The notes below the pieces were generated by a model. The model was given only the letters and a program-made list of their open reading frames with translations, ran no database searches and was not told the origin of the DNA. The translations under genes were made by a program, and so were the position numbers. A stretch of DNA of 64,000 nucleotides from Chthonomonadia bacterium. Lineage in GTDB: Bacteria; Armatimonadota; HRBIN16. This document shows positions 7,634-52,950 of the stretch, one piece after another (position 1 is the stretch's first letter; each line of letters opens with the position of its first letter). The stretch is from the NCBI GenBank assembly GCA_013314755.1, contig JABUFA010000001.1, forward strand, positions 23,594 through 87,593, read 5' to 3'.

Positions 7634-9925
7634 ATGTCTTTCCTCAAATCTGGTATACTTATTCCCGCACTGTTAGTACTGCTACCCAATCTTCTGACAC
7701 AGGGAGGCAACATGCCTGATCCAAGCGAAGAGGCATTATCCTATCTGCAGCGCTGTAATGTGGTGTGGGATACACCCTCAAAAGACAGCTCCGGCTCCAT
7801 GCCTCTCGGCAACGGCGATATCGGGGTAAATATGTGGGTGGAACCGAACGGCGACCTCGTGTTCTACCTGAGCAAGACCGATGCCTGGAGCGAAAACAAC
7901 CGCCTGCTGAAACTGGGCAGGGTACGGGTGTCGTTAGAACCTTCTCTCCTGAGTGGGGGCGACTTCTTCCGTCAGGAACTGCGCCTGAGTGGTGGCGAAG
8001 TCATCGTACAGGCGGGTAGCCGCTCAAGCCCGACAAATCTGCGGGTGTGGGTGGACGCCAACCGCCCGGTAGTATGGGTGGACGTGGATAGCCCCCAGCC
8101 CGTGCAGATACGGGTGCAGCTGGAGGTCTGGAGGCAGAGCGACCGCACGCTCGAGGGCAAAGAGCTGTTCAGCGCGTACGGCATGATGGGTTCGCCCCAT
8201 CCCGTAGTGGAACATGCCGATACGGTGCTGGATGGGCAGAAGGACTGCATTATCTGGTATCACCGCAACCCGACCTCTATCTATGAGCTCACCCTGCGCC
8301 ACCAGGGGCTGGAGAGCCTGATTGGCAAACTACCTGACCCGCTACTGCATCGCACCTTCGGGGGGCTGATTCGCGGCAGAGACCTGGTGCGTACGGACAA
8401 ATACACCCTCGCCAGCGTCTCACCCGCAAAACAGTTTTCGGTCGCGGTGCATGTGTTGACTGCTCAGACCGAAACGGCAGAGGAGTGGGTGAGCCGTATC
8501 CGGGCGCAGGCGAAGCGGGTGGAGGCAGTGGGACGCACGCAGGCACGCGCCGCCCATCAGCGATGGTGGCTTAACTTCTGGCGACGCAGCTGGATTGTGG
8601 TCAGCGGTAGTCCGGAAGCGGAAGTGGTTACCCAGGGTTACGCGCTCCAGCGTTTCATCAACGCCTGTGCCGGGCGAGGAGCCTACCCGATTAAGTTCAA
8701 CGGCTCCATCTTCACGGTAGACTCGCGTGAGCCAGATGAGCACTTCGACGCCGACTATCGCCGCTGGGGCGGGGAGTACTGGTTCCAGAACACACGCCTG
8801 CCCTACTGGACAATGCTCCCCACAGGCGATTATGACATGATGCGCCCGCTGTTTGAGATGTATCTGAAGGCTCTGCCACTGGCGAAGGCGCGTACGCAAA
8901 TCTATTTCGGGCATGAAGGGGCATACTTCCCTGAAACCATCACCTCCTGGGGCACATACGCGAACTCGAACTACGGGTGGGACCGGCAGGGTAAGCCTGT
9001 TTCGTATATTGATAACCCGTATATCCGCTACTACTACTCGTGCAACCTGGAACTGCTGGCGATGGCGCTGGAACACTTCTTCCACACAGGTGACAGGCGG
9101 TTCCTGAGCGAGACACTTTTGCCCTTTGCGGACGCATTCATCACCTTTTACGACCGCCATTTCGGGCGCGACGGCGACGGGAAACTTCTGCTGAAGCCCT
9201 CGCAGTCTCTAGAGACCTATCCTGAGACGGTGAACCCTCTGCCGGATATTGCCGGTTTGCGCTGGGTTCTGCAGGAGCTGCTTCGAGTGCCTCTCAGCAG
9301 GCAGGATTTACACCGGCGCAACCTGTGGCGGCGACTGCTGGAACAGCTTCCTCCCCTGCCCATGAAGACGGAAGGGGGACAGACTTTCCTTCTGCCCGCT
9401 CAGGAAATCCTCGCCCCGCCGATTAACTCCGAAGACCCCGAACTGTACGCCGTGTTCCCCTATCGGCTGTATGGAGTGGGCAAGCCCGACCTGCAGGTGG
9501 CGCGCAATACCTACGCCCGACGACCATACAAAGGCAACGAAGGCTGGCGGCAGGACCCCATCTGGGCGGCTCTGCTGGGGCTGGCAGATGAGGCGAAGAC
9601 GATGGTTGCTCAGCGGTTCGCCACCAAACACGCGGGCAGTCGGTTCCCCGCCTTCTGGGGACCCAATTACGACTGGATACCCGACCAGGACCACGGTTGC
9701 GGGGGAATGATTGCCCTGCAGGCGATGCTGATGCAGACCGATGGTGAGAAGATACTGCTCTTCCCCGCCTGGCACAAAGAGTGGGACGTCTCCTTCCGCC
9801 TGCACGCCCCGGGCAAAACGGTGGTGGAAGCCGTCTGGCGCAACGGCAGGGTGCACTCCCTGAAGGTAACGCCCAGCTGGAGGGAGAAAGATGTGATGAT
9901 TATAGGCGCAGACAAAAGCGAGTAG
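7634..9925 (+). CDS. Secreted large protein, putative (alpha/alpha)6-barrel-type glycoside hydrolase (DUF5703-like)
   Basis: About 760 aa. Signal peptide MSFLKSGILIPALLVLLPNLL. The family assignment is from memory of similar PVC/Bacteroidetes proteins and is not verified. Confidence 0.4.
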   Translation: MSFLKSGILIPALLVLLPNLLTQGGNMPDPSEEALSYLQRCNVVWDTPSKDSSGSMPLGNGDIGVNMWVEPNGDLVFYLSKTDAWSENNRLLKLGRVRVSLEPSLLSGGDFFRQELRLSGGEVIVQAGSRSSPTNLRVWVDANRPVVWVDVDSPQPVQIRVQLEVWRQSDRTLEGKELFSAYGMMGSPHPVVEHADTVLDGQKDCIIWYHRNPTSIYELTLRHQGLESLIGKLPDPLLHRTFGGLIRGRDLVRTDKYTLASVSPAKQFSVAVHVLTAQTETAEEWVSRIRAQAKRVEAVGRTQARAAHQRWWLNFWRRSWIVVSGSPEAEVVTQGYALQRFINACAGRGAYPIKFNGSIFTVDSREPDEHFDADYRRWGGEYWFQNTRLPYWTMLPTGDYDMMRPLFEMYLKALPLAKARTQIYFGHEGAYFPETITSWGTYANSNYGWDRQGKPVSYIDNPYIRYYYSCNLELLAMALEHFFHTGDRRFLSETLLPFADAFITFYDRHFGRDGDGKLLLKPSQSLETYPETVNPLPDIAGLRWVLQELLRVPLSRQDLHRRNLWRRLLEQLPPLPMKTEGGQTFLLPAQEILAPPINSEDPELYAVFPYRLYGVGKPDLQVARNTYARRPYKGNEGWRQDPIWAALLGLADEAKTMVAQRFATKHAGSRFPAFWGPNYDWIPDQDHGCGGMIALQAMLMQTDGEKILLFPAWHKEWDVSFRLHAPGKTVVEAVWRNGRVHSLKVTPSWREKDVMIIGADKSE

Positions 9926-9937
9926 GAGAGTACAGCC

Positions 9938-10885
9938 TTGCCTCGTGCGGTGGTGACAGGAGGAGCGGGGTTTCTGGGGTCGCATCTGGTAGACCGACTG
10001 CTGGCGGAAGGCTATGAAGTCATCGTGCTGGATAACCTGATCACCGGCAGTGTGCAGAATATCGCGCATCTCGCCGGTAACGAACGCTTCCGCTTCATCA
10101 AACAGGATGTGACCGAATATCTCTATATCGACGGCGCGGTGGATATCGTCTTCCATTTCGCCTCGCCTGCCAGCCCGGTGGACTTCGCCACCAAGCCCAT
10201 CCAGATACTGAAGGTCAATGCACTGGGCACGCACAAAACGCTGGGGCTGGCGAAGGCAAAGGGCGCGCGCTACGTGCTGGCATCCACCTCGGAGGTATAC
10301 GGCGACCCCCTGATACACCCCCAAACAGAAGACTACACGGGCAATGTGAACCCGGTGGGCGTGCGAGGCGCATACGATGAAGGCAAACGCTTCGCCGAGG
10401 CGATGACCATGGCATACCACCGTCATCACGGACTGGACACGCGCATCGTGCGAATCTTCAATACCTTCGGCGAGCGCATGCGCCCGGATGACGGCAGGAT
10501 GATCCCCAACTTCATCGGGCAGGCACTGCGCGGCGAACCGATAACCGTGTACGGCGATGGACAGCAGACGCGCAGCTTCTGCTACGTCTCTGACCTGATA
10601 GAGGGCATCTGGAGGCTATCGCAACTGCCCGACTATCATGAACCGGTCAACATCGGCAACCCCGACGAGCGTACGGTGCTGGAGGTCGCTACCTTGATCC
10701 GGGAGATTGCCAACAGCAGGAGCGAGATAGTATTCCGCCCCCTCTTTTCGCCCGATGAGCCGCGCCGACGCAAGCCGGACATCACCCGGGCACGCCAACT
10801 GCTGGGCTGGGAGCCGCAGGTCAGCCTGGAAGAGGGACTGAGGCGCACCATTGAGTACTTTCGCCAGCGGATGGCACGTCCCTGA
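9938..10885 (+). CDS. uxs: UDP-glucuronate decarboxylase (UDP-xylose synthase; SDR family)
   Basis: Rossmann motif [10 protein letters not shown], a catalytic S..YxxxK region (ASTSEVYG...YDEGKR) and overall similarity to UXS1/ArnA-type decarboxylases. Confidence 0.85.
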
Positions 10886-25355: not shown

Positions 25356-26051
25356 CTATCCGTCACCTGCTCTCTGCCTGATGTCCTCCTCGCGACAGGG
25401 TCGCCAGTTCGTACAGAAGTCGGAATGAAAGCTGGGCAAACAGAATTGGTCTGTGAAAAGTAACCAGAAAGCCTCCCCAAATCCGACTCGCTTGCCCTCG
25501 GAGTCGTAGCGGCAGATGGGGTAATAACTTGCCGGATGCACGGAGCCGTCCAGATGGACGCGCAAAAGGGCACGACGTCCCCAACAGATAATTCCCTCTG
25601 GAGAGCCATTGATATAAGGGTTCCTACAGTTTTCATGCAACGTGCAGGCGAACAGTCCTGGGTTACTATCTACTTTGAGGATATCTTCGGCAATCGTGCG
25701 CTTGAGATAAAAATAACTGGTTGGGTATTGCATATCTTCCTGAAAGACCCCATCTTCGGCTGGATCCAGAGGACATATCCACACAGAGCGGTTTTTGACA
25801 TATGGGGCAAGGTTCTCCGTTCTGGGCGCCCAGGTGGCCAAATCGCCTGACGAGCCGTTGTAATCGCCCAGGTAAAGCGACCACGCCACATGCAGCTGCC
25901 GCAATTGAGAGGCGCATACCGATTTTTTCGCAGCGCGACGTGCGCTGGATACCACCGGCATCAGCAGGGCTGCCAGCAAAGAAATAATCAGGATCACGAT
26001 CAGTATCTCCAAAAGTGTCCACCCACGTGCCCGTTCCCGCATCGGAATCAT
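25356..26051 (-). CDS. Prepilin-type N-terminal cleavage/methylation domain protein (divergent H-X9-DG family)
   Basis: N-terminus RGWTLLEILIVILIISLLAALLMPV is a canonical G-WTLLE prepilin peptidase site. The C-terminal motif has degenerated. Confidence 0.7.
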   Translation of the reverse strand: MIPMRERARGWTLLEILIVILIISLLAALLMPVVSSARRAAKKSVCASQLRQLHVAWSLYLGDYNGSSGDLATWAPRTENLAPYVKNRSVWICPLDPAEDGVFQEDMQYPTSYFYLKRTIAEDILKVDSNPGLFACTLHENCRNPYINGSPEGIICWGRRALLRVHLDGSVHPASYYPICRYDSEGKRVGFGEAFWLLFTDQFCLPSFHSDFCTNWRPCREEDIRQRAGDG

Positions 26052-26055
26052 CTCC

Positions 26056-26493
26056 TTACAGGTCTTTGATGTTGTTCAGCCCTATGGCAACAAAGTAAGT
26101 AGCGACCACATATATACCCATCCCAACCAACTGCGCCAACATTAGAACAGAATCCATCACCAGCTTCTGCGGATGAATGAGCCTGTCGAGATTGGGAAAC
26201 AGAAATGCAAACAGAAAATATATCACCAGAAACGTGGTCAATTTCTTCTGTCTCACAGTGTCTGTTGTTGTAAGGAGGAGATAGATGCCTGCTGAGAGCG
26301 GTACAGCCAGTATCCATATCAGCAACCACTCATACCAGTGGGCAGGCAGGCGGGTATATTCTCCTATTGGCGTGCCAAGTACCAGCGAGAACAAGAGCAT
26401 GGATAACGCGACACACGCCCAGAGTAGCAGAGGCGGAAGCACCGCCAGCACCACCCAAATGGACACTTCTCGCTGTCGTTGCATGCTGTTCAC
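26056..26493 (-). CDS. Polytopic membrane protein (hypothetical)
   Basis: Four predicted TM helices and no recognisable motif. 5-nt gap to the pilin-like gene downstream on the same strand. Confidence 0.4.
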   Translation of the reverse strand: MNSMQRQREVSIWVVLAVLPPLLLWACVALSMLLFSLVLGTPIGEYTRLPAHWYEWLLIWILAVPLSAGIYLLLTTTDTVRQKKLTTFLVIYFLFAFLFPNLDRLIHPQKLVMDSVLMLAQLVGMGIYVVATYFVAIGLNNIKDL

Positions 26494-26629
26494 CTCGTGG
26501 CGGGGAGGTGTTCCTGATTTTGGGCTTCAGTCTTTGTTAGAAAGCTTAGTTACTATTGAAGACGATTCCTGCCTAAAAACGAGACTATGCATCTTTCTTG
26601 CGCCAGTCGGTGCTAAACGAATATCAGGC

Positions 26630-26830
26630 GGTTTTTGAACGACGGCTCGGCGGGAGCCTCGCCCTTCAGGGATGAAGAACCCCTCTCCCGACCTCTCCCC
26701 GACGCGGGGAGAGGTGAATCTCCCCTTCCCTCGCAGGGAATGGGCTGGGGGATAGGTCCCGTCCTTGAACCCCTCTCCCGACCTCTCCCCGACGCGGGGA
26801 GAGGTGATGCGCCCTGCGAGTTAGACTTCC
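26630..26830. repeat. Mosaic REP-like hairpin repeat cluster (two identical 41-bp units at 26677-26717 and 26767-26807, each containing palindrome CCTCTCCCCgacgcGGGGAGAGG)
   Basis: Direct read. Same units recur at 49.9-50.05 kb and 56.37-56.47 kb. Also contains CCTTCCCTcgcAGGGAAtGG, which is shared with 52.05 kb. Confidence 0.85.
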
Positions 26831-26893
26831 CTTAAACTCCGTTCCTCCTGCACATCGGGTATACTAGTACCAACCTACCTGAAGGAGAGCGCT

Positions 26894-27148
26894 ATGTGTC
26901 TGGCGATACCGGGACAGATATTGAGCATATCCGGCGATGACCCCCTTACCCGCACGGGCAGGGTGAGCTTTGGAGGCATCGTGAAAGAGGTCAACCTGGC
27001 TTATGTGCCCGAAGCGAAGGTGGGTGACTACGTGATTGTGCACGTGGGGTTTGCCATCAGCATTGTGGACGAGAAGGAAGCACAGGAGGTCTTCGAATAC
27101 CTGCGCCAGATGGAAGAACTGGGCGAACTGCAGGAGCAGGCAACATGA
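26894..27148 (+). CDS. hypC: [NiFe]-hydrogenase maturation factor HypC
   Basis: 84 aa beginning MCLAIP, the invariant HypC N-terminus. Confidence 0.9.
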
Positions 27149-28245
27149 GGTTTATCGAGGAGTACCGCGACCCCGAATCCGCCAAACGCCTTGCGGAAGC
27201 CATCCACAAAACCGTCACCCGCCCATGGACAATCATGGAAATCTGCGGTGGGCAGACGCACGCCATCATGAAGTTCGGCATCGATGAGCTCCTGCCGCCC
27301 CAGATAACGCTGTTACACGGTCCGGGCTGTCCGGTGTGTGTAACTCCCGTGGAGCTGATTGATAAAGCAGTGGAGCTGGCGTCGCGCCCGGAGGTCATTT
27401 TCTGTTCCTTTGGGGACATGCTGCGCGTGCCGGGCACGAGCAAGGACCTGCTTTCCGTGAAGGCAGAGGGTGGGGATGTGCGCATCGTGTACTCGCCCTT
27501 GGACGCCCTGCAGCTGGCAATCAAAAACCCCGACCGACAGGTGGTCTTCTTTGCGGTGGGCTTCGAGACGACTGCGCCCGCCAACGCGATGGCGGTCTAT
27601 CAGGCGAAGCAGAAAGGGGTGCAGAACTTCTCTATTCTGGTCTCGCATGTGCTGGTTCCCCCTGCGATTGAAGCCATCCTGCGTTCCCCCACCTGCCGTG
27701 TACAGGGCTTTCTGGCAGCAGGGCATGTCTGCACCGTCATGGGCTACACCGAGTACGAGCCGATTGCGCAACGGTATCATGTGCCCATCGTGGTCACGGG
27801 TTTTGAACCGCTGGACATCCTGCAGGGCGTGTACATGTGCGTGAGGCAGCTGGAGGAGGGGCGAGCGGAGGTGGAAAATCAGTATGTGCGCTCCGTACGG
27901 CGTGAGGGTAACCGCCCGGCGCAGGAGCTGATTCGCGAGGTGTTCGAGGTCGTTCCGCGCAAGTGGCGAGGCATCGGCGAGATACCGCAAAGCGGGCTGG
28001 GCTTGCGCGAGCCGTATCAGCAGTTCGACGCCGAAAGACGCTTTGCCCTGAGCACAGGCAGTGTGGAAGAGGCTTCAGAGTGCATCAGCGGCCTGGTTCT
28101 TCAAGGAGTCAAAAAGCCACCCGAGTGTCCCGCTTTCGGCACGCGCTGCACCCCCGAACACCCGTTAGGCGCAACGATGGTCTCTTCGGAAGGCGCGTGC
28201 GCCGCCTACTTCAAATACCGGCGAGGCGTTCAGGCAGCGCGTTGA
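27145..28245 (+). CDS. hypD: [NiFe]-hydrogenase maturation factor HypD
   Basis: CGxH, GPGCPVC and FxPxH-type HypD motifs ([24 protein letters not shown]). Confidence 0.9.
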
Positions 28246-29969
28246 ACCCCTGCCAGATGGTCGTCAAACGTCCGCACGAACTCTCGCCCGCAAGCCATCA
28301 GCTGATGCAGTAGCTGGGGTTCTGGCTGGCTGTGCAGCTGTTCGCACAGCGCATGGAACCGCGCATGACACTCTGCAGATGTCTCAAGATACGGGCACGC
28401 CGGCACGGCGCTTTGCTGAGCCTGTTCCAGCCACACGCGAAACCGACAACCCTCTTCCGTCGGCACGTCCAGCGGCGTACGTCCCGCCACAAACGCTTTC
28501 GCCCGCCGCGTCATCTGCAGGTGGTCGTAAACAATCTGGCTGATGACCTGCTGGATAGCGTAGCCGCCGTGGTCGTGTATGGCGTTCTGCACACGCTCCT
28601 GCCACACTTCCGGGGCGATTTCGGTAATCAGCACGCCTGCCTCCTGCGCGTGGGTAGCACGGTTCCGCCCGTTGCGCTTGGAAACATACAGCGACTGGTC
28701 CGCCTCTTCCACCAGCGACTCGGGGTTCAGGGTGTGCAGGGCAACGCTGGCAACTCCAAGGCTGACCGTAATCGGTTGATAACAGCAGGGGGTGCTTTCC
28801 ACCGCCCGCCGGACCTGCTCGGCAAAGCCCATCGCCTGTGTGGCGTCCAGACCGGGTAAGATGACCGTGAACTCCTCGCCGCCATAACGTGCGCAGAAAA
28901 ACTCCTCGCCGCACTGCTCAAGCAGGACATGCGCCACTTTGCGAAGCACCTCGTCGCCCGCCTGGTGACCGAAGGTATCGTTGAACCGCTTGAAATGGTC
29001 AACGTCCAGCAGGATAAGGGAGAGGGGTGCATCCTGCTCCAGCGACCAGAGGAACTCGCGCCACAGTCGCTGGCGAAAAACCCGATGGTTTGGCAGTCCG
29101 GTCATCGCATCGGTCGCTGCCATCATCTCCAGCTCGGCGTTAACCTGCGCCAGCCGCTGGGTGAGCTGCTGAAGGTTTTCGTTTTGCGCCTCCAGCTCCT
29201 CGCGCTGTGCCTCGATAATTTCCTCCTGCTGTTTCCGAGCGGTGATGTCCACATTCGCGCTGATCGCTCTCCAAACCGCTCCACTGGGGTCGACAAGCGG
29301 AAAGGTGCTGCACAGCACCCATCTCTCCTCGCCGTCTCTGGTGCGGTCTTTCCACTCGATATTGCGCACAGCACGCCCCGAAAAGACCTCTTCAATTACC
29401 TGCCGGGTGCGCGGGGCATCTTCGGGGCGGCAGATGAGATCGTAAACACTGCGTCCGATGGCTTCTTCGGCGCGGTAACCGTAAAGGCGCTCCGCCTCCC
29501 GGTTCCACTCGTGCACCACGCCGTCGCGGTCGTAGGTGAAGCAGGCGACGGACATCTCCTGGAACAGCTGCGTCATGTAGCTGAGGGCTCGCTCCTGCTC
29601 GCGCAGGGCGGTCTGTAACTGCTCCGTGCGCTCCGCGACCAGGTCCTCCAGGTGCTGGCTGTAGCGGCGCAGCTTCGCGGTTGTGTTCTGAGCCAGCCAC
29701 ACCGTCAACACCACGAACACACTGCCGAACAGAAACACCTGCGAGACTATCGCCTGCAGCCAGTTGATATGGTCTGCCAGTATCGCCCAGATGCTGAACA
29801 GATACCCCAGCAGGAAAAAGGTCATCAGCACCATCAGAATCCTCAACAGGGTGCAATACCCGGCTGCTTGCACCGCCTGGCGCATCCCCCAGGCGCGGCG
29901 GATGGAAACAAACATCAGCCCTGCGCCAATGCTGATACCGATAACGTCTATGAGCTCTTTAAAAGACAT
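28230..29969 (-). CDS. Membrane-anchored sensor diguanylate cyclase: TM - coiled coil - PAS - GGDEF (GGEEF) - C-terminal CZB-like zinc-binding domain
   Basis: GGDEF domain with RYGGEEF and the DxLTGL-like motif [11 protein letters not shown] segment ([32 protein letters not shown]). The C-terminal YDHLQM...[12 protein letters not shown]...C...H...H..C resembles the chemoreceptor zinc-binding (CZB) motif; this is a domain call from memory. Confidence 0.75.
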
Positions 29970-30128
29970 ACTGTATGCACCTCTTCCGGACCGGCAGGAG
30001 ATATATCTTGCGTTCTATAGCACAACACCTCGTTAATAATAATCGGTATCACATAGTGGAGGCTGAAGGGCAGGATAAGGGCGAGACGGCGCGGAAATAG
30101 CATATACGTAAATCTGGGAGGCACACGG

Positions 30129-31193
30129 GTGGACCAGCAGATGGCGTCCGATAGTTTTGCTCTTTCCTGTCCCATCCCCATCCAGCAATATCCAGCAATC
30201 GTGATGGCTCATGGCGGGGGCGGCAGGCTGATGCATCAGCTGATTGAAAAGATGTTTGTTGCCACCTTTGCCAGCAGTGCCCTGAGCCAGCGACACGACA
30301 GCGCACAGATGGAACTGCCCGCGGGACGCCTCGCCTTCACCACCGACTCCTATGTGGTGCGTCCGCTCTTCTTTCCGGGCGGAGACATTGGCAAGCTGGC
30401 GGTATACGGCACGGTCAACGACCTCGCGATGAGCGGCGCACGTCCCCTGTACCTCAGCCTAGGCATGATTCTGGAAGAGGGTCTGCCGATGGAGACGCTG
30501 TGGCAGGTGGTGCTCTCTATCGCGCAGGCGGTGCGGAAAACGGGCGTGCAGATTGTCACCGGCGATACGAAGGTGGTGGACCGGGGCAAAGGTGATGGCA
30601 TCTTCCTGAACACGTCGGGCGTGGGCGTGATAGAACACGACCTGACCATCGCACCACAGGCGGTGCGGGCGGGCGATGCGGTCATCCTCAGCGGCGACAT
30701 CGGGCGCCACGGCATCGCGGTGATGGCGGTGCGTGAAGGGCTGGAGTTTGAAAGCGCCATTGAAAGCGACTGCGCGCCTCTGGCGGAGCCGGTGCTGGCG
30801 CTGATTGGGGAAGGCATAGAGGTACGCTGTCTGCGCGACCTCACGCGCGGCGGTCTGGCAAGTGCGGTCGTTGAGATTGCCGAGGCGGCGAGGGTGCAGA
30901 TACTGCTGGAAGAGGCGCGCATCCCCGTGCGCGAAGACGTGCGCGGCGCCTGCGAGATACTCGGTTTTGACCCCCTCTATGTCGCCAACGAGGGGCGATT
31001 CGTGGCGTTCGTGCCGGCGGAACAGGCAGAACGGGCGGTGCAAACACTGAGGCGGTTCCCTGCGTGCGAGGGGGCGACGGTGGTGGGGGAGGTCAGCCGC
31101 GCCGACGAAGGGACGGTTATCCTGCGCAGCGTCATCGGCACGTCGCGCGTGGTGGACATGCTCAGCGGCGAACAGTTACCCCGGATATGTTGA
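30129..31193 (+). CDS. hypE: [NiFe]-hydrogenase maturation factor HypE (carbamoyl dehydratase)
   Basis: PurM-like fold motifs, an N-terminal CPIP motif and the C-terminal invariant …PRIC cysteine tail. Confidence 0.9.
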
Positions 31194-31219
31194 GGCAACA
31201 ACACAAAAGGAGGAACGCG

Positions 31220-32827
31220 ATGGAACAACGCTTTAGGGATTTTTTAGAAAATCATGTGAACGAAGTGCGCCCGCTGGCGCGAGAGACCGCGCTGGCGTGG
31301 TGGGAAGCGAACGTGACGGGTAGCGAAGAGGCGTTTGAACGCGCTGCGCTACTGCAGGCGCAGATGATGAAAATATACGCCCGCGAACACGAGTACCGTT
31401 TCCTGCAGGAAATCCCAAACGACAGCCTGTCCGACCCCCTGCTCCGCCGACAGCACAAGCTTCTGCTGGATGAATATCGCGGTCACCAGATGTCCGAAAA
31501 GACCATCGACGAAATCGTCCAGCGTGAGAAGGAGATTGAGAAGGAGTACAACACCTATCGCGCCCTGTTCCGCGGCCAGCGCGTCAGCGACAACGCCCTG
31601 CGTGACATCCTGCAAAAGAGCACTGACAGCGAAGAACGACGCGAGGCATGGGAAGCCAGCAAACAGATTGGCGAGCGGGTAGCAGACGCGGTGCGCGAAC
31701 TGGTGCGCATTCGCAACCGCGAGGCGCGACGGCTGGGCTTTCGCGACTACTACGCCATGCAGCTGGAACTGCAGGAGCTGGACGAAATGCGCCTGTTCAA
31801 CCTGCTGGAAGAACTGCATCAGCTGAGCAACGCCCCCTTCCAGCGGTACAAGCAAAAGCTGGACGCACGCCTTGCGGAGCGATTTGGCATCGCGGTAGAT
31901 GACCTGCGCCCCTGGCACTACACCGACCCCTTCTTCCAAAGCCCTCCGCCGGGCGAGGTGGACCTGAACCCGCTGTTTGAGGACAAGGACATCGAGGCGA
32001 TTTCCCGGCAGTTCTACGCAGCCGTCGGGCTACCAGTAGAGCCGATTCTGGAGCGGAGTGACCTCTACGAGCGCGAAGGCAAGAGTCAGCACGCCTTCTG
32101 CATCGATATCGACCGCGAGGGCGACGTACGCATCCTGTGTAACCTGCGCCCCAGCGAGCGCTGGATGGGCACGATGCTCCATGAACTGGGACATGCGGTG
32201 TACGACTACTACATCGACCGTTCCCTGCCGTATCTGCTTCGCACGCCGGCGCACACCCTCAGCACCGAAGCCATCGCGATGCTGTTCGGCAGGATGCACC
32301 GCAACGCCTCGTGGCTCCAGCGATACGCAGGCGTCCCCGCCGAGCAGGCGCAGGCGGTCGCACGCCCCGCTATCGAGGAGATGCAGGCATCGCTCATCGT
32401 CTTCACCCGATGGGTGCTGGTGATGACGCACTTCGAAAGAGCCATGTACGCCGACCCCGACAGCGACCTGAACAGCCTGTGGTGGCAGCTCGTGGAGAAG
32501 TACCAGTGGCTGACCAAACCCGAAGGGCGCAATGCCCCAGACTGGTGCGCGAAGGTACACATTGCGCTGGCGCCCGTGTACTACCAGAACTACATCCTGG
32601 GCGAGATGGAAGCGTCGCAGCTGGTGCATGTCCTGCGCACGAAGGTGCTGGCGGGAGAGCCGAGGGACGCCATCGTGTACAGCCCAAAGGTAGGCGAGTT
32701 TCTGAAGGAGAAGGTGTTCTCCACCGGAGCCACGCTCCCGTGGGAGGAGGCTCTGCAATATGCCACCGGCGAAAGGCTGAACCCGGCGTACTTTGTGGCG
32801 CAGATGGAAGCAGAAGAGCCGATTTAG
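31220..32827 (+). CDS. Zinc metallopeptidase, M2/M32-like (ACE-like / carboxypeptidase Taq-like) HEXXH enzyme
   Basis: HEXXH in GTMLHELGHAVYDYY. The N-terminal region ALAWWEANVTGSEEAFERAA resembles the M2/M32 N-terminal helices. AAGGAGG RBS before ATG 31220. Exact family not resolved. Confidence 0.55.
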   Translation: MEQRFRDFLENHVNEVRPLARETALAWWEANVTGSEEAFERAALLQAQMMKIYAREHEYRFLQEIPNDSLSDPLLRRQHKLLLDEYRGHQMSEKTIDEIVQREKEIEKEYNTYRALFRGQRVSDNALRDILQKSTDSEERREAWEASKQIGERVADAVRELVRIRNREARRLGFRDYYAMQLELQELDEMRLFNLLEELHQLSNAPFQRYKQKLDARLAERFGIAVDDLRPWHYTDPFFQSPPPGEVDLNPLFEDKDIEAISRQFYAAVGLPVEPILERSDLYEREGKSQHAFCIDIDREGDVRILCNLRPSERWMGTMLHELGHAVYDYYIDRSLPYLLRTPAHTLSTEAIAMLFGRMHRNASWLQRYAGVPAEQAQAVARPAIEEMQASLIVFTRWVLVMTHFERAMYADPDSDLNSLWWQLVEKYQWLTKPEGRNAPDWCAKVHIALAPVYYQNYILGEMEASQLVHVLRTKVLAGEPRDAIVYSPKVGEFLKEKVFSTGATLPWEEALQYATGERLNPAYFVAQMEAEEPI

Positions 32828-43691: not shown

Positions 43692-45053
43692 TCACCGCTG
43701 AGTCTGCGCCTGCACCAGCGCGAGGTAGCGTTTGCGCAGTTCGGGGTCGCGCTGAATTGTCTTCTGGATCTCCTCGTTAATCTGGCGCGCGGCGGTGCGC
43801 AGGGCGTCCGCTGCCGATTTCTGATTGCTCTTCACTAGGTCTAACTGCTTGTTCAGGATGCGCATGGCGGTCTGCCCGTTGACGAAGGGGCTGATTTCAT
43901 CGGGCACGGCGTAGTTCATCGCATCGCGCCACACGGCGTTAAAATCCTCCTCCGGGTAGGCGGGGTCATGCAGGTATTTTTCGGTATACGAGTACTTCTT
44001 CACCGGCGCGAGGGCGTCCGCCTGATGGTTAATCAGCTCGTTATACTCCTTGCTGGCGAGGTACAGCACGAACTTCAGCGCGTGTTGTCGGCGTGGGCTG
44101 TTGCGGTTGATCAGCGAGGCACGCCCGTAGCCGCGAAAGATGCGGTATGGTCCATGTGGCGACTCCACCGCGCCCAGCTTTAGCCCCCGATAGCTGCGCA
44201 GGGTACACAGCCACCATCGCCCGCCCAGCGCCATCGCGCCCTTCTTCGCGCCAAACCAGGTAATCGTGCCCGAACCCCAGCCTCCCTGTGTCGCCATCGC
44301 CGCCTCCTCCACCGGGCTGGGCATCACGCGGTACTTATAGATAAGGTCCTGCATGAACTGCACCGCCGCAATCGCCTGCGGACTGTCGATGATACAGCGT
44401 GTGCCGTCGGGTGTGTACAGCCGTCCACCCCATTGCAGCACGAAATGATACCAGTTCCACCAGTCCATCAGGAAGCCGAATTGCACCGGTCTGCCGCTCC
44501 GGTCGCGGATAGTGAGCTTCTGGGCGACCTCCAGAAACTGTTCCCATGTCCAGGGTCCTTTGGGATAGGGCACGCCGTATCGGTCGAAGATGTCCTTGTG
44601 GAACCAGATGGCGTTAACCGCCGCGTTGGTGGGAAAGCCGTAGACGCGCCCTTCGTGGATGATGTTGGGGTGCACCGCCCGCCACACGTCGTTTTCCACG
44701 TCGATGCCCGCCTTTTTGAGTTCGTCGGTGATGTCCCACGCGATGCCCGAGCGCACGTAGGCGGAGAGCTGAAAACCGTCGTAACAGTCGAAGATGTCGG
44801 GTCCGACGCCTGCCAGCGACTGCACAATGACCTTCTCCATGCCGGTGTTGCTGGGGTCCAGGCGCAGGTCATATTCGGGGTGCAGTTTGTTGAACAAGGC
44901 AATCTGCTCACGGCGGGCAGGGTTATCATCGCTGACCCACACCAGGGGGATTTTGCCCTGGGCGGTGTCGCGCGGCTGGATACGCCACGCAACCAGCGAG
45001 AGCAGAACCAGTACGACAAACGCCCCAGCGAAGAAGTATTTCATGGGAACCAC
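43692..45053 (-). CDS. ABC transporter extracellular solute-binding protein (family 1, sugar)
   Basis: Signal/anchor helix followed by a ~430-aa SBP-type fold. First gene of the SBP-x-MalF-MalG block. Confidence 0.85.
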   Translation of the reverse strand: MVPMKYFFAGAFVVLVLLSLVAWRIQPRDTAQGKIPLVWVSDDNPARREQIALFNKLHPEYDLRLDPSNTGMEKVIVQSLAGVGPDIFDCYDGFQLSAYVRSGIAWDITDELKKAGIDVENDVWRAVHPNIIHEGRVYGFPTNAAVNAIWFHKDIFDRYGVPYPKGPWTWEQFLEVAQKLTIRDRSGRPVQFGFLMDWWNWYHFVLQWGGRLYTPDGTRCIIDSPQAIAAVQFMQDLIYKYRVMPSPVEEAAMATQGGWGSGTITWFGAKKGAMALGGRWWLCTLRSYRGLKLGAVESPHGPYRIFRGYGRASLINRNSPRRQHALKFVLYLASKEYNELINHQADALAPVKKYSYTEKYLHDPAYPEEDFNAVWRDAMNYAVPDEISPFVNGQTAMRILNKQLDLVKSNQKSAADALRTAARQINEEIQKTIQRDPELRKRYLALVQAQTQR

Positions 45054-45093
45054 CCTTACTTCCTATCTTTCTATTTCTCATATCTTTCTCCTC

Positions 45094-46752
45094 TTACCCC
45101 AACGTGCGCTGGAATAACCACTCCACAAAGTGAACGAGCGCAGGAGTCTTTTTGTGCCGAAGCCATAGGAAGGCAAGCGGAAAGCCAATCACTGCTCGCT
45201 TTTCTCGATGAGCAATGAGGCGTGTGCTGCCGAGGGTGGCCAGGTATGTCCACTGCTTGCCTAGAGAAGAGATATCTATGGGCAAAATGGGTAGATCGTT
45301 GTGTGTCACGGGGATTTCACCGCTTGGGGTCTGTACGGTATACCCCCTGTCGTTCCTTGCATGAGGCGTGTTGACCACCTCTACCACGCTGGGAAGGATA
45401 GCTGCCACTTCTTCCAATCGCTTCCTGTCTTCAAGAGGTAAGGTTTCCATTGGCGAAAACGCTACGTAGATTCCTTTATAGTCGCGCAGATTTTCCTGCA
45501 GATTATCTTCACAGACGACTCGCACAGGATATCCGTGCTGTGTTAACATATGCCACGCTCCAAATTGAGCATCATGTAACCACTCGGTTTGTTCTCGGTA
45601 GCAATAATTCGTCCACTTGGAAACGAACAGCAAGACCGTGTTTGCGGAGTCCGTACGCCGAGAGGTCGTAACGTTTTGGGCAATTTTAGCGGCCTCCGTA
45701 ACTAGCCGATGCTCAGAGGGCAGCTTATCGCTGTAGGAATAGTTGGCGATTTTGAGGTGTGCTCCTTCAGCAAGAGCAGCGCCGAGCACACGCAAAATCT
45801 GAGCATCGGTATAGCCAAACTTTTCCTGCAAAATGGGACCATCTATCTCGAAGCTAACTGGTAATCCCGTGATACCCTGCAGAGCAGCCACCGAAGCGGC
45901 GGCATGCCAAGCGGGGTCCTTTGCGTGCCAGAAGAAGTCGTAGCTATGTACGATGTGATTTGCCCCTCTCGACAGGCCGAAGTAGTCCGAGTTAGACATT
46001 GTGGCACTGGCACTGCGGTACCCTTCTCCCAGAGGAACGCTGATAAAAGCACGTGGATTACCTTCTCGGATTGCCTGTACAAAGCGATATACAGCACCAC
46101 GCCAGCTATGTTCACGGAATGCAATAAAAGCACGATGAGATGGGCTCAGGTCAGGTTCTCCGTTGGTGTGGTTGGGAAGAACAGGAGGCTGTTGAGGCAG
46201 ATTTGCGTTGCCTGCAATACGCTTCAGCCAGGCAGGGCGGGGGATGGAAATAGATTGACGCCACTTATTTACACTGGCAGGGTCGTAGCTCCACCAGTCT
46301 GACCATTTGAGTTCTCCATGTACCCCGATAAATGGGCTAAACTGTACAGGCTCATTGTGAAATTGTCGAGCGAGCATCGTACAGAGAGGAAGGAAGCACT
46401 CCCAGAAGCGGTCGTCGTTAATGGAGGGAATAGGCATTACCACTTTGCCCGTGTGGTCGCACCAGAGGTTGCACTTCAACCATGCTGGCATAGCACTAGC
46501 ATAATAGGTATTGATACGCACTCGAAGATACATTCCCAGCTTCTTAGTGATGGCGAGCCGTTGTGAGACAAAGGAGAAATCGTACTGGTGCGGTCTCGGC
46601 TCTAGTTTGCTCCACGGAGCAGTAATTTCCATAACATTAAAGCCAGCACGCTTCAAATCCTTGCTCCACTGTTGGAAGAGGGACAGTTGTTGACAGGGTA
46701 GAGTCCAGTCCCATATGTCGAAAGCCAGTTCACGTTCGTGGTTTTGACCCAT
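45094..46752 (-). CDS. Putative glycoside hydrolase, GH42-like TIM-barrel plus trimerisation-like domain
   Basis: N-terminal FNVMEITAPWSKLEPRPHQYDF resembles the GH42/GH35 barrel start. The central Rossmann-like segment resembles the GH42 middle domain. Region has visibly lower GC. Confidence 0.45.
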   Translation of the reverse strand: MGQNHERELAFDIWDWTLPCQQLSLFQQWSKDLKRAGFNVMEITAPWSKLEPRPHQYDFSFVSQRLAITKKLGMYLRVRINTYYASAMPAWLKCNLWCDHTGKVVMPIPSINDDRFWECFLPLCTMLARQFHNEPVQFSPFIGVHGELKWSDWWSYDPASVNKWRQSISIPRPAWLKRIAGNANLPQQPPVLPNHTNGEPDLSPSHRAFIAFREHSWRGAVYRFVQAIREGNPRAFISVPLGEGYRSASATMSNSDYFGLSRGANHIVHSYDFFWHAKDPAWHAAASVAALQGITGLPVSFEIDGPILQEKFGYTDAQILRVLGAALAEGAHLKIANYSYSDKLPSEHRLVTEAAKIAQNVTTSRRTDSANTVLLFVSKWTNYCYREQTEWLHDAQFGAWHMLTQHGYPVRVVCEDNLQENLRDYKGIYVAFSPMETLPLEDRKRLEEVAAILPSVVEVVNTPHARNDRGYTVQTPSGEIPVTHNDLPILPIDISSLGKQWTYLATLGSTRLIAHREKRAVIGFPLAFLWLRHKKTPALVHFVEWLFQRTLG

Positions 46753-46847
46753 TTTCTTCCTCCGATAGGAAGAGCCTCCACGAATCGGGATGTAAAGGGA
46801 GTCCCCGTACCGGCAACAAGATACGAGGACTCCTCTTCCGCCTGCCG

Positions 46848-47648
46848 TTACATATCAGGACTCAGGAGGTGGGTAGAGACGTAATCCTGAGCCTCTGCTT
46901 CAGAGTTCGCCATGTACCAGTTATCCCAGGGGTTGACCAATAACGGATAGTTATCCGTTAGGTTCCACATCAGGCGAGGGCGTACGGTCTGGCTGGACCT
47001 CAATGCTTTTGCGTGTCCATCTACGAATGTCCAGTTGATGGTCCCGCCGTGTGTTCGCAGAGGATACCAGGTGTATCCGATGTACCACAGCCCAGCATCG
47101 AAGAGCTCGAAGGGCAGCTCTACGATGATTATCTTAGACGCAGGCTCTTGGATACCGGCAAGGGCGAAGGCGTTTTGTCCACTACCGTATGTCCAGCCGA
47201 ACACGTACGCGTTCATCGCGTAGCCTTTGGGGCGGGTGACTGTGCCCCAACCTCCGGTACGTCCAACAGCCTCGTCTGGACGGGAAGGACAGACAAAGAT
47301 CTGGTGGTTTTTCACATAGGGCATCAACAGGTCGTACCAAATGATGAGGTCGACGCCCCAGTCACTTCGTCGTCCAACCCAGCGGTCATAGTTGGGCATA
47401 GGCAACATTTCGTCGTAGTCCTGCGTGTACATCACCATGCCAAGCCCAAGCTGCTTCATGTTCGAGAGACAAGCGGACTTTCTGGCTTGTTCGCGTGCAC
47501 GTGCGAACACCGGGAACAGAATCGCTGCCAGTATCGCGATTATCGCGATAACCACCAGCAATTCGATCAGGGTAAAAGCTGTGGCCGTGCGTCTCACTGG
47601 TTTTTTCCCTCCTTCGTTCGTCCGAGTTTTTGAGCGTTTCTGCCACAC
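46848..47648 (-). CDS. Prepilin-type N-terminal cleavage/methylation domain protein, H-X9-DG (DUF1559) family
   Basis: [35 protein letters not shown]-terminus and C-terminal FVDGHAKAL. Exact start uncertain. Confidence 0.7.
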
Positions 47649-47829
47649 CTATTTGTGGTCGGGATGTGGCATTGTTGCCTGCGAAGGCAACGGTGGTAGC
47701 CACGGTGGCTTTTCTGGCTCGTACAGGATGGTCTTGCGCCACACTATTACCGCGATAGCGAGCAACACGATAATCAGGGCAAGCCCTATTCCGACGAACC
47801 TCTTTTGCTGCATGTGTTTATCACCTCCC

Positions 47830-48840
47830 TCAGAGACGGGGTGCTGGACCTGTGCTTTTCCTAATTACGAGGCTTGTTTGGAACCGACAGATCTGGGTTG
47901 GTTCAACAGGAGACCGACGCAATGCCAAAACCATCTCAGCCGCCTTTTGTCCCAGTCCAAAAGCATCTATTCGTACAGTAGTAAGCGGTGGTTCCATCAT
48001 ACTTGCCATTGGCACATCATCATGCCCTACAATCGAGACCTGTTCTGGCACGCGTAGTCCTAGGCTAACAGCGCTAAACATCGCACCAATTGCAAGGTCG
48101 TCTTTTCGGGCAAAGATTGCCGTAGGGGGGTTAGGCTGGGTGAACAAATGCCGAGCCGCCGCAGCACCCTCTGCCACAGTGAAGCCGGCAGTTACTATGT
48201 TACGTTCCTCGAGAGAGACTCCGTACTTCTGCAACGCTTCCCGGAACCACGTTGGGAAAAGATCGTCTTCCCGGATGCCAATAAAACCGATGCGTCGATG
48301 CCCCAAAGAGACCAGCAAATCCGCTACTTCCTCCACTCCGTGTTTCATATCCGTTGTAATACATCCTACATAAGGTAAATCGGCTTCGGTGGGTGCTCCG
48401 TAAATCACAAAGGGCGTAGCAGGGTTAGCGAGCTGTTTGATATGCTCACGCACAGGACTCCAGCCTTTTATCAGGATCACCCCGTCTACTGCTGCCGAGC
48501 GCACCCATCTAAGCAAGGGGGAATCTGCGCTATCTAGACGAAACACGTTATCCAACAGTAAGCCATAACCATGCATATGCAGGGTAGACTGAACGCCTCG
48601 TGCAAAGTCCGTGAGAAACAGGTCTGAAAGGATTTCCTGGTCGGTGTGGTGGAGGGCAATGATGTGGCTTTGTCCCGTGACGAGCTGCTGAGCGTGGGGG
48701 TTTGGAATATACCCCAGTTCTCTCATGCGCCGAAGCACCATCTCGCGTGTTTTGGCGCTAACTCGCCCTCTACCACTCAACACGTGCGACACGGTGGTCG
48801 GAGAAACTCCTATTAGTTTGGCGAACTCTTTGATGCGCAT
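47830..48840 (-). CDS. LacI family transcriptional regulator
   Basis: N-terminal HTH MRIKEFAKLIGVSPTTVSHVLSG and a C-terminal PBP-fold effector domain. Confidence 0.85.
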   Translation of the reverse strand: MRIKEFAKLIGVSPTTVSHVLSGRGRVSAKTREMVLRRMRELGYIPNPHAQQLVTGQSHIIALHHTDQEILSDLFLTDFARGVQSTLHMHGYGLLLDNVFRLDSADSPLLRWVRSAAVDGVILIKGWSPVREHIKQLANPATPFVIYGAPTEADLPYVGCITTDMKHGVEEVADLLVSLGHRRIGFIGIREDDLFPTWFREALQKYGVSLEERNIVTAGFTVAEGAAAARHLFTQPNPPTAIFARKDDLAIGAMFSAVSLGLRVPEQVSIVGHDDVPMASMMEPPLTTVRIDAFGLGQKAAEMVLALRRSPVEPTQICRFQTSLVIRKSTGPAPRL

Positions 48841-49269
48841 ATTGTATTGGAAAATACAACGACTTATAGGAAAATCGTTTTGGCAAATTCAATTGTATCC
48901 TAAACTCTTCTCTATGTCAAGGGATTAGTGTGATGTTTTCCCAAAAAATCAGTAAAAGGCTTGGTGGAAATCGACCGGAATGCTCGGTTAGTAATCTCAG
49001 GTATACTTTGTGGGCTAATTTCGATGTATGCCGAGAACGCTGGTAATGACTAAGCTCGACCGTTTTCGGTGTGGACTGGTCGGAGAATGCATCCGCCGAT
49101 TTGAAAAACAGGGTTTGCAGTGGATGCAGCGTTTCGTCTCCTTTGGCTGGTTGACGCCTCTTTCCAAGCGTGGTTATCGGCTATGTGTGATGCTGGGGTG
49201 TCTGGCGGCGTTTTCGGCGCGTGCTTCGCGTGCACCTGCGAGGAGCCGTCGTTCGAAGGTAGAGGCGGC

Positions 49270-49680
49270 GTTAGACGGGATAGTGGCGGTTCATGCGAAG
49301 ATGGATGCTCAGGGGCATGAGGATAGGTTGCTGGTGGTATTGGGTGTTAGGTTTGAGTGGCCGGCGTGTGTGAGGTGTGGGGAGAAGTGTTCGTTTGGTG
49401 TCATGTTGGTGGAGTGGGAGTGTTCGTTGGCAGACTGGGGATCGGTGTCGTGTTCTGGGCATGCAGGTATGGAATGCGTTTGGTGAGGGATTTGGCACGG
49501 TTTGTGTGCGTGAAGGGGCGAGTTGGGTAGAAATGGCTGAAGGATTAGTGGCTTGGCTGGTGGAGGCTAAAGAGGGGATTGCGGTGTTCTTGGGTAGATT
49601 TCTGGGGGTTTGAATGGTTATGATAGATGATGAAGCAAGGCTTTGGGGGGATCGTGGGGGCGGTGTTCAGCTAAAAGTTC
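49270..49680. other. Strongly GT-skewed, C-depleted non-coding tract (~400 bp)
   Basis: The plus strand is almost devoid of C over ~400 nt in an otherwise ~60% GC genome. Overlapping ORFs encode improbable W/G/V-rich or P/H/T-rich peptides. Confidence 0.6.
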
Positions 49681-49689
49681 AAAAGTCGG

Positions 49690-50095
49690 GACATCTCCCG
49701 CGAGGAGAGGGAAAAACAGATCGGCGGAAGCCTTGCCCTCCAAGGGATGCTGTAGGGGCAACCCTCTGTGGTTGCCCTCTCCAATGCCGAACAGCCCCAC
49801 CTGAACTCACCGAAGGCGGAAAGGGACTGTCCCCCTGCTTGCGAGGGGACAACACGGGGGCTTACCATACCGCAAGAAAGCCCCTCCTAACCTCCCCGCA
49901 GGCAGGGAGGAACCCCTCTCCCGCCCTCTCCCCGACGCGGGGAGAGGAGTGTCGAAAGAAGCCCTCACCCTGACCCTCTCCCACGAGGAGAGGGCAACAC
50001 GGGGTAAAACCCCTCTCCCAGCCTCTCCCCGACGCGGGGAGAGGTGATGCGCCCCTGAACGGAAAGATTTTTCCGAGAAATCTCTCCCGAACACC
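49690..50095. repeat. Dense array of REP-like hairpin repeats (at least 5 distinct palindromic units)
   Basis: Contains GGGCAACCctctgtGGTTGCCC, GTCCCCctgcttgcgaGGGGAC, CCTCCCcgcaggcaGGGAGG, CCCTCTCCCacgagGAGAGGG and two CCTCTCCCCgacgcGGGGAGAGG units. A 95-bp composite (49950-50045) is repeated inverted at 56372-56465. Confidence 0.85.
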
Positions 50096-50211
50096 CCAAA
50101 ATCTATTGACTCTGATAAACATACCTGCTATACCATATCTGAAACAGGTAGCACAGCTCCCGCAGTCGGTTTGGGAGAGCCAAAACACTTGCTGATTGAG
50201 GGTGCTGAAAA

Positions 50212-51111: not shown

Positions 51112-51118
51112 GGGGGGC

Positions 51119-51688: not shown

Positions 51689-52050
51689 TGGACAGGTACA
51701 GGGCTTTATGAAGCTTTGCGGTCTTGCGCTCGTGAAGCGGTATGCCAGACATTGCCCAACGCTCTGGAGGGCGCGCGCTGCGAATTGCGTTGCTTCCTTC
51801 AGCAGTTTTTCCAGTACTTTCTTTTAGATGTTATAGCCCTGCTCATTGTAGTGGGGTATGTTGTAGCGTTGGCTTCTTCTGTGCGGCGTCGCTGGGTTTC
51901 TGGGGCTTCGCAAGGCAATTCACTATAGCTCCGTCAAGCCTGAATCTTGGTGGTATAGATACTCCACGCAACGGTATTTGCGGTTCATTATCTTTCACCT
52001 CTAACAGTAAGCATAACACAAAGATGAAAAGTTCCACACCCTAGGCATCG

Positions 52051-52121
52051 CTCTCCTTCCCTCGCAGGGAAGGGGCTGGGGGTTAGGTTCAAACGGCTCG
52101 GCAGGAGCCTTGCCCTCCATC
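52051..52121. repeat. REP-like repeat copy (CCTTCCCTcgcAGGGAAGG + GGCTCGGCAGGAGCCTTGCCCTCC modules)
   Basis: Modules shared with 26.64-26.76 kb and 49.72 kb, in a different order. Confidence 0.8.
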
Positions 52122-52904: not shown

Positions 52905-52950
52905 TAGGTTCCTTTACCCCAACAATCTACCGGAGAAGGAGGGAGGCAAA

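Follow-up and report, generated by a model that had tools for sequence, protein, structure and literature searches.

In a 64,000-nucleotide (nt) stretch of a Chthonomonadia bacterium (Armatimonadota, HRBIN16; contig JABUFA010000001.1, positions 23,594 to 87,593), referred to below as the window, the maturation genes hypC and hypD are separated from hypE by a gene on the opposite strand that encodes a predicted diguanylate cyclase (DGC). What is new here is the kind of cyclase found in this place. Its sequence indicates a membrane-anchored, PAS-containing protein in which a divergent CZB homologue follows the GGDEF domain, the reverse of the known order, and this cyclase is conserved inside the hyp cluster. 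We favour an account in which an ancestral insertion brought the divergent-CZB cyclase into the cluster, its tie to the hyp genes is positional, and the hydrogenases are encoded elsewhere; we put the probability of this account as a whole at about 0.6. The genes and the domains of the cyclase are as follows.

26894-27148, plus strand: hypC, 84 amino acids (aa); PF01455 at E=1.2e-27, TIGR00074 at 88 bits against a cut-off of 48
27145-28245, plus strand: hypD, 366 aa; PF01924 at E=5.4e-160, TIGR00075 at 520.8 bits against 192.8
28230-29969, minus strand: DGC gene, 579 aa, TM-PAS-GGDEF-CZB (TM, transmembrane)
29682-29969, minus strand: membrane anchor, aa 1-96, from a Kyte-Doolittle scan and conservation in alignment A1
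29220-29573, minus strand: PAS domain, aa 133-250; PAS_4 at E=4.5e-17, TIGR00229 at 81.5 bits against 22.9
28659-29120, minus strand: GGDEF domain, aa 284-437; PF00990 at E=1.5e-39, TIGR00254 at 154.5 bits against 37.4
28233-28613, minus strand: predicted divergent CZB, a helical bundle, aa 453-579, from tail scans, profile searches and alignments
28521-28523, 28446-28448, 28365-28367 and 28353-28355, minus strand: codons of the putative zinc ligands H483, C508, H535 and H539
30129-31193, plus strand: hypE, 354 aa, GTG start; TIGR02124 at 461 bits against 251.6

The cyclase and its C-terminal tail

A sequence-only reading of the stretch had placed hypC-hypD and hypE on the plus strand, parted by a 579-aa open reading frame (ORF) on the minus strand, and the ORFs lie exactly there. 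Domain scans of 28230-29969 found the GGDEF domain, the PAS domain and the membrane anchor listed above, and bore out the further claim that GGDEF precedes CZB, the reverse of E. coli DgcZ. The anchor comprises hydrophobic segments at about aa 5-24, 35-66 and 70-96 with short loops between them (Kyte-Doolittle). The active site RYGGEEF (aa 361-367) is invariant in the 26 orthologues aligned, as are D322, D324, N330, D339, K431 and R435. With an intact GG[D/E]EF motif and the metal and substrate residues in place, the DGC is, as far as its residues tell, catalytically competent. An RxxD inhibitory site (I-site) was not found at the usual position in the GGDEF domain. The protein does not follow the DgcZ layout, which is soluble, about 300 aa long and ordered CZB to GGDEF; the 296-position diguanylate cyclase equivalog NF007380 matches solely its GGDEF part (positions 98-291), at 138.6 bits against a cut-off of 256.

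Within the GGDEF domain, a PCCY motif (C395, C396; 28782-28787) is invariant in 26 of 26 orthologues (alignment A1) and is family-specific, being absent from the canonical PAS-GGDEF-CZB relatives P0122-P0127 (P numbers denote proteins, and L numbers loci, of our collection). C39 in the membrane segment and C143 in the PAS domain are invariant too among the orthologues, and together these cysteines may form an extra redox or metal site.

The tail was compared with CZB domains by profile searches and alignments. PF13682 matches aa 483-543 over profile positions 1-61 of 64, and 17 of 22 orthologue tails match the same family (best E=4.1e-6), while any other family is matched by at most three tails. 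When searched against a library of 1.84 billion representative proteins, the tail profile retrieved 13 proteins in all, among them P0122 and P0124-P0129 at E=1e-11 to 1e-5 and P0131 at E=7.8e-4. Eight matches from outside the family were scanned with Pfam, and all score above the CZB gathering level (40-99 bits): five PAS-GGDEF-CZB proteins, whose CZB reaches 49-54 bits, a tandem-CZB protein (99 bits), the CZB protein P0129 and an MCP-CZB fragment. A reciprocal search from P0126 returned its own small family, then REC-PAS-GGDEF-CZB proteins, and then the window DGC family, which is 33-37% identical to P0126 over 83-98% of the query. Alignment by hhalign to E. coli DgcZ is ungapped and puts C508, H535 and H539 on C52, H79 and H83; a MAFFT alignment of 12 sequences (A3) adds H483 on DgcZ H22, and its sole invariant columns are Cys508, W513 (DgcZ W57) and His535. 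Since the two alignments agree, the window DGC carries a complete putative 3His/1Cys site in the register of DgcZ H22, C52, H79 and H83, and homology to accepted CZB proteins is joined by a predicted four-helix-bundle fold like that of the DgcZ CZB. The alpha3 motif of CZB domains reportedly reads Cx[LFMVI]Gx[WFLVI]; the DGC has C-R-F-R-V-W there, with the Cys, the hydrophobic residue and the Trp kept and the Gly replaced, and R509 and W513 are invariant in its family. Taken together, these comparisons support the tail as a divergent CZB homologue with a putative zinc site. A hemerythrin-like tail, to which 3 of 22 tails gave weak matches, was dropped in favour of CZB.

Several observations speak against this assignment. 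A C-terminal CZB had been claimed from the sequence alone, and the claim stands on homology and on H483/C508/H535/H539 in register, but the Pfam gathering score of 29.4 bits is missed, the match reaching 17.0 bits (E=0.0076) in the full protein and 21.8 (E=2.5e-4) in the isolated tail. The homology is remote; against PDB chains the tail profile retrieved designed bundles only, DgcZ not appearing at E<=10, and Foldseek gave nothing significant for the CZB call. Nor do all 26 family sequences have the ligands: 6 carry Val or Leu at the first His position, 3 lack the Cys, and 5 have Cys where the last His would stand.

Such a sub-threshold score and such variable ligands (His to Val/Leu, Cys to Tyr/Met/Glu, His to Cys/Met/Gln), together with the unconserved Gly of the alpha3 motif, would also suit a tail that is CZB-derived or CZB-like and binds no zinc, serving only as a dimerisation or linker bundle while the PAS and membrane parts regulate. 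The middle domain of DosC, which is zinc-free and CZB-like, provides a model for this, and the canonical relative P0129 also touches PF21118 (DosC_2nd). However, all four ligands stand in the DgcZ register in the window protein and likewise in most orthologues, the Cys, the His535 position and W513 rank among the best-conserved columns of the tail, and a His-to-Cys change at the fourth position would still bind zinc. We regard a zinc-free bundle as distinctly unlikely, and treat the tail below as a divergent CZB.

In a 2021 survey, cyclases carry N-terminal CZBs (PMC8262984). The GGDEF-to-CZB order appears to be rare, though not unique to this genome: among the top matches of the P0126 search about eight other clusters have a recorded CZB match, and the thermophile family itself numbers about 31 clusters.

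Origin and conservation of the insertion

The genes on either side are, on the evidence of their translations, intact and ordinary hypC, hypD and hypE. All three proteins combine equivalog-level hidden Markov model scores with signature residues, namely the essential N-terminal Cys2 in MCLAIPG for HypC, GPGCPVC and GFETT for HypD, and a PRIC motif at the C-terminus of HypE, and Pfam found no extra domains in them. The start of hypD overlaps the stop of hypC (ATGA). Identity among clade members is 84-95% for the Hyp proteins, a sign of strong purifying selection, against 58-61% for the DGC, which evolves much faster than its Hyp neighbours yet keeps all catalytic residues.

Orthologues of the DGC form about 31 full-length clusters at 54-98% identity. 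Every one with a named source is Armatimonadota, and several come from hot-spring metagenome-assembled genomes (MAGs), including KatS3mg022 and KatS3mg023. The next-best matches are 36-46% identical and lack the tail. A search of metagenome contigs with the full-length alignment A1 gave no orthologues, the best match being 39% identical, and was dominated by generic GGDEF patterns (ARYGGEEF, [FY]GHQAGDE).

Ten orthologue loci were compared (L001, L002, L003/L004, L086, L087, L088, L170, L171 and L172). In all ten, hypC-hypD converge on the DGC, and hypE diverges from it in 9/9 loci that reach that far, L172 having a cut gene there. The outer flanks, in contrast, vary in at least four ways: the M2/M3 peptidase flank of the window is common to L087 and L170 only, a Lon...ASD flank is found in L001-L003, a flank of NlpC/P60 plus ceramidase in L086 and L171, and melibiase lies on opposite sides in L088 and L001-L003. 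The sole internal change is a DsrE/DsrF-like gene between the DGC and hypE in L003/L004 (9289-9735). The subclade with this DsrE insertion is also the one in which the first CZB ligand His is Val.

As an outgroup we used 80 HypD loci among the matches listed, from GTDB species representatives with HypD 68-81% identical; the window's own species is not among these matches. Most of these, from many phyla and including a Chthonomonadales MAG, have hypC-hypD-hypE contiguous, the usual order being large subunit...hypF-hypC-hypD-hypE(-hypA-hypB), and none of the 80 has a GGDEF gene between hypD and hypE. Because hypD-hypE adjacency prevails in the outgroup and no GGDEF gene interrupts it, the DGC is a derived, clade-specific insertion into a formerly contiguous hypCDE, as the sequence-only reading had proposed. 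That reading had also named what would overturn it, a lineage-specific random insertion with hypCDE intact elsewhere; the insertion is indeed lineage-specific, but since it is fixed in all ten orthologue loci despite reshuffled flanks, it cannot be put down to a single chance event in this genome. The remaining hyp genes are dispersed in the same clade.

Interruptions of another kind occur in related hyp clusters. Among the matches listed, the closest outgroup HypD loci (81%), L005 and L007 from MAGs labelled Bipolaricaulota and Fraserbacteria, have a 362-364-aa ORF with no Pfam match between hypC and hypD (8867-9961 and 8865-9953), and in L005 hypE does not lie downstream, with thyX in its place; with this ORF insertion and loss of hypE, hyp clusters in this HypD subfamily have been broken up by other means as well. 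The window HypD is 68-81% identical to those of MAGs labelled Bipolaricaulota, Fraserbacteria, Verrucomicrobia, Chloroflexota, Acidobacteriota, cyanobacteria and Thermoplasmata archaea, and 72% identical to that of the lone Armatimonadota (Chthonomonadales) representative among the matches listed. This likeness across phyla suggests that the hyp set has spread horizontally, or that some sequences are mis-binned.

Junctions, hydrogenases and the tie to the hyp genes

The two junctions of the DGC gene contain the following features.

28230-28245, both strands: 16-nt overlap of the convergent hypD and DGC 3' ends, the end of the DGC (...QRAA, stop) antisense to that of HypD (...QAAR, stop)
29970-30128, both strands: divergent control region between the DGC and hypE, 159 nt
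30039-30046, DGC strand: CCGATTAT element, about 70 nt upstream of the DGC start in the window
30103-30108, hypE strand: TATACG, then GGGAGG ahead of the hypE GTG, read by eye

In 10/10 loci (the window and nine orthologue loci, with L004, a near-duplicate of L003, left out), hypD and the DGC gene share 4-20 nt at their 3' ends, and no terminator-like site was found at this junction. Because of the overlap there is no room for a terminator, and the convergent hypCD and DGC transcripts must run into each other, which allows interference. An unrelated pair, a calcineurin-like phosphoesterase gene (plus) and an alpha-amylase-family gene (minus), has an 18-nt convergent overlap at 2529-2546, so that such overlaps are a general compaction feature and not special to hypD and the DGC. 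The spacer between the DGC and hypE measures 102-313 nt across loci, and 746 nt in the case of the DsrE insertion. The motif CGATWAT (mostly CCGATAAT) is present in the 60 nt ahead of the DGC in 7 of 10 loci, and the window is without it there. In L001, L002, L003, L088, L170, L171 and L172 it lies 12-35 nt before the start codon, with a background expectation of 0.0045 per 40 nt, and in the DGC promoter it probably serves as the -10 box or as an operator. Being cut off from hypCD, hypE must have a promoter of its own beside that of the DGC; by eye, hexamers of the form TATAC(T/G) resembling -10 boxes stand ahead of both hypC and hypE. AGTATAC recurs nearby on the hypE side. A cyclic di-GMP (c-di-GMP) riboswitch as a direct link to the hyp genes was rejected on an Rfam scan, in which no c-di-GMP-I or c-di-GMP-II riboswitch reached the gathering score in the window and none appeared at E<=1 in 26000-31500.

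A fixed four-gene block could be a functional module. The DGC would then sense whether conditions allow the oxygen- and metal-sensitive NiFe(CN)2CO cofactor to be assembled, with the CZB (zinc or oxidants) and the PAS domain (O2 or redox) as inputs, and its output, c-di-GMP or transcriptional interference, would set the timing of hypCDE expression, or of biofilm behaviour, so that it falls in the anoxic phase of H2 metabolism. The order of the four genes is unchanged in 11 of 11 loci, as far as each extends, while both outer flanks have been repeatedly reshuffled, the DGC family was found in the hyp context alone, and the compact divergent region with its conserved CCGATAAT element and the universal convergent overlap, free of a terminator, would fit such control; moreover, CZB domains sense both zinc and oxidants (PMC8262984). 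However, there is no c-di-GMP riboswitch and no extra Pfam domain in HypC, HypD or HypE, and hypCDE handle iron and cyanide, not nickel or zinc. An unrelated block (Lon-HSP20-TPR-RNase J-DHDPS-ASD) is equally conserved in L001-L003, other convergent overlaps exist in the window, and the closest outgroup hyp clusters (L005, L007) are plastic as well. The far faster evolution of the DGC and the loss of the first ligand His in one subclade also argue against a module, which we consider rather unlikely.

A sharper version, in which the DGC is a dedicated checkpoint sensor of [NiFe]-cofactor assembly, is more doubtful still. Here the Cys-Zn site of the CZB and the PAS domain would read cytoplasmic zinc, oxidant or O2 status, and hypCDE or hydrogenase-linked behaviour would be gated to the anoxic phase of the hot-spring diel cycle through c-di-GMP, or through opposing transcription over the hypD overlap and the promoter region shared with hypE. 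In general, the Fe(CN)2CO moiety comes from hypCDE, and nickel insertion falls to hypA and hypB. The functional link between Ni/Zn status and c-di-GMP that the sequence-only reading had raised finds no direct support at this locus, where hypCDE build Fe(CN)2CO, hypA and hypB are not present and no riboswitch was detected. Hydrogenase maturation may be linked to metal or redox sensing, but such a link is unsupported and we think it unlikely.

The window offers the hyp genes no hydrogenase partners. A search by Pfam on most ORFs of at least 100 aa, by tblastn with E. coli HypA, HypB, HypF, HycE, HycG and HycI, and by a large-subunit motif scan was negative throughout for hydrogenase large and small subunits, hypA, hypB and hypF in the 64 kb, in agreement with what had been noticed from the sequence; HypF, HypA, HypB and the large subunit were likewise not found within +/-10 kb in those clade loci compared. 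The description of the hyp genes as orphan therefore holds within the window, but not beyond it, where sister MAGs with the same DGC are reported to encode hydrogenases (PMC9671151). In that paper, hydrogenase genes are described in three Armatimonadota MAGs only, the HRBIN16 MAGs mg022 and mg023 and the UBA5829 MAG mg024. KatS3mg022 and KatS3mg023 are of class HRBIN16 (PMC9671151), and mg022 and mg023 carry the DGC orthologues P0018 and P0010. Multiple bidirectional hydrogenases are reported for the HRBIN16 'OTU12-like' taxon (PMC11788075), and the supplements of that paper covered here contain no HypD, HypE or diguanylate entries. A HoxH-like large-subunit query (Chthonomonadales locus L055) gave three Armatimonadota-annotated clusters among its top matches, none traceable to KatS3mg022 or KatS3mg023. 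On the basis of these published sister MAGs, which are other than the window's own genome, the hyp genes are orphan only locally.

Were they true orphans, hypCDE would be decaying remnants or genes recruited to a non-hydrogenase role, and the DGC insertion would mark a dying operon. The lack of a hydrogenase, hypA, hypB and hypF in 64 kb, or within +/-10 kb in relatives, agrees with this, as does the disappearance from the locus of hypF, the usual gene just upstream of hypC. In contrast, none of HypC, HypD and HypE is truncated, their scores exceed the equivalog cut-offs by far, they retain their signature residues and are under strong purifying selection across the clade, and hydrogenases are reported for sister MAGs. 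True orphanhood is, in our judgement, very improbable.

In the account that we favour, the ancestor of one thermophilic Armatimonadota clade, including KatS3mg022 and KatS3mg023, would have had a canonical hyp cluster, and a membrane-anchored TM-PAS-GGDEF-CZB cyclase gene would have landed antisense between hypD and hypE in that ancestor. The hypF, hypA, hypB and hydrogenase genes would now sit elsewhere in the clade genomes, and HypC, HypD and HypE would serve [NiFe]-hydrogenases encoded there. By analogy with DgcZ, Zn2+ in the CZB would keep the GGDEF domains from adopting a productive arrangement, and zinc loss or Cys508 oxidation would release c-di-GMP synthesis, while the PAS domain and membrane segments would supply further inputs. 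The tie between the DGC and the hyp genes would be positional, consisting of the compact divergent promoter region with hypE and the 3' overlap with hypD. Most likely, the block persists because its genes are tightly packed and through phylogenetic inertia, transcriptional coupling perhaps contributing to some degree, and the cyclase most likely takes no part in cofactor assembly.

Besides the remote homology and variable ligands of the CZB, some points weigh the other way. The arrangement is kept throughout the 11 loci across at least four flank contexts, which is somewhat above a pure-inertia expectation. Changes number about 11 at the outer junctions against 1 inside (binomial P of about 0.05), a crude count of events that are not phylogenetically independent. 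Finally, the hydrogenase evidence comes from sister MAGs and not from the window's own genome.

Further features of the window lie upstream of hypC.

26860-26865, plus strand: promoter-like -10 hexamer TATACT ahead of the hypC ATG, read by eye
26881-26889, plus strand: Shine-Dalgarno sequence GAAGGAGAG ahead of the hypC ATG, read by eye
26677-26814, plus strand: two copies of a 48-nt repeat, each with the palindromic hairpin CCTCTCCCCGACGCGGGGAGAGG, within 400 nt upstream of hypC

A strict scan found no full sigma-70 promoter in 26400-31400, and the hypC promoter and Shine-Dalgarno calls are thus putative. The two repeat copies are 94% identical and 90 nt apart. The 23-nt hairpin CCTCTCCCCGACGCGGGGAGAGG occurs five times in the window (26692-26714, 26782-26804, 49925-49947, 50022-50044 and 56380-56402; expected 0), and judged by its letters the element looks like a dispersed REP-like (repetitive extragenic palindromic or miniature inverted-repeat transposable element type) intergenic repeat, not specific to hyp. 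Neighbours in the window include molybdenum cofactor biosynthesis genes, a pst phosphate transporter, proC, an M2/M3-type peptidase gene, glycoside hydrolases and many DUF1559 pseudopilins. At about 45000-53000, G+C content is 0.50-0.57 against about 0.60, and that of third codon positions is 0.42-0.67 against mostly 0.68-0.82. Genes for a GH42-like protein, a LacI regulator and a pseudopilin lie in this region together with several ORFs that match nothing in Pfam, and the region may be an island gained by horizontal transfer.

Meaning and closest known systems

To our knowledge, CZB-regulated cyclases have been studied only in the DgcZ form, with an N-terminal CZB, and in host-associated bacteria. 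The locus documents a rare reversed, membrane-anchored PAS-GGDEF-CZB architecture, as predicted, in thermophilic Armatimonadota; if it is true that the zinc/cysteine switch works from the C-terminal side, a CZB bundle can signal to GGDEF through either end. A sensor gene fixed in a hyp cluster also leads to a testable idea on the coordination of H2 metabolism and lifestyle by facultative anaerobes in diel oxic/anoxic mats, and metatranscriptomes of a related taxon are already published. A checkpoint sensor, if true, would be the first link of c-di-GMP signalling to hydrogenase maturation. If the link is merely positional, the locus would reflect ordinary operon erosion in a lineage with scattered hyp genes.

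Compared with canonical hyp clusters (hypF-hypC-hypD-hypE with or without hypA and hypB, by hydrogenase genes), the window has bona fide Hyp equivalogs, with HypD 68-81% identical. However, its hypE is parted from hypCD by an opposite-strand gene, so that the canonical order is not kept, and hypF, hypA, hypB and hydrogenase genes are missing from the neighbourhood.

H. pylori TlpD and other chemoreceptors resemble the window DGC in carrying a C-terminal CZB with a 3His/1Cys motif, which in the TlpD type acts as a Cys-Zn redox switch sensing HOCl and other oxidants (PMC8262984, PMC6715182). The output domain of the window protein is GGDEF and not the MCP signalling domain, and no chemotaxis genes lie nearby.

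E. coli DgcZ (YdeH; PDB 3T9O, 4H54) likewise joins a GGDEF domain with an intact GGEEF to a CZB four-helix bundle, and H483/C508/H535/H539 align with its H22/C52/H79/H83, the Trp after the Cys being kept (C-x-F-x-x-W). In DgcZ the CZB is N-terminal, whereas in the window DGC it is C-terminal to GGDEF; the window protein adds N-terminal membrane segments and a PAS domain, and has no RxxD I-site. Its CZB, with putative zinc binding, has only about 15-17% identity to the DgcZ domain and does not reach the Pfam threshold, and its host is a thermophilic environmental bacterium, not a host-associated one.

Other relatives are the PAS-GGDEF-CZB and REC-PAS-GGDEF-CZB proteins (P0122, P0124-P0127 and P0259-P0263; P0122 is annotated as from a Deltaproteobacteria MAG), on which our literature search found no experimental work. 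In 8 of these 10 proteins, unlike the window DGC, the CZB is above the Pfam threshold or recorded as PF13682 (five were scanned, at 49-54 bits), and their domain positions leave no space for a membrane anchor. They share with the window DGC the order PAS, GGDEF and C-terminal CZB, whole-length homology (33-37% identity over 83-98% of the query), a linker helix (EEW..R..) and the signature DHLQ...CR[LF]..W...H..[LF]H.

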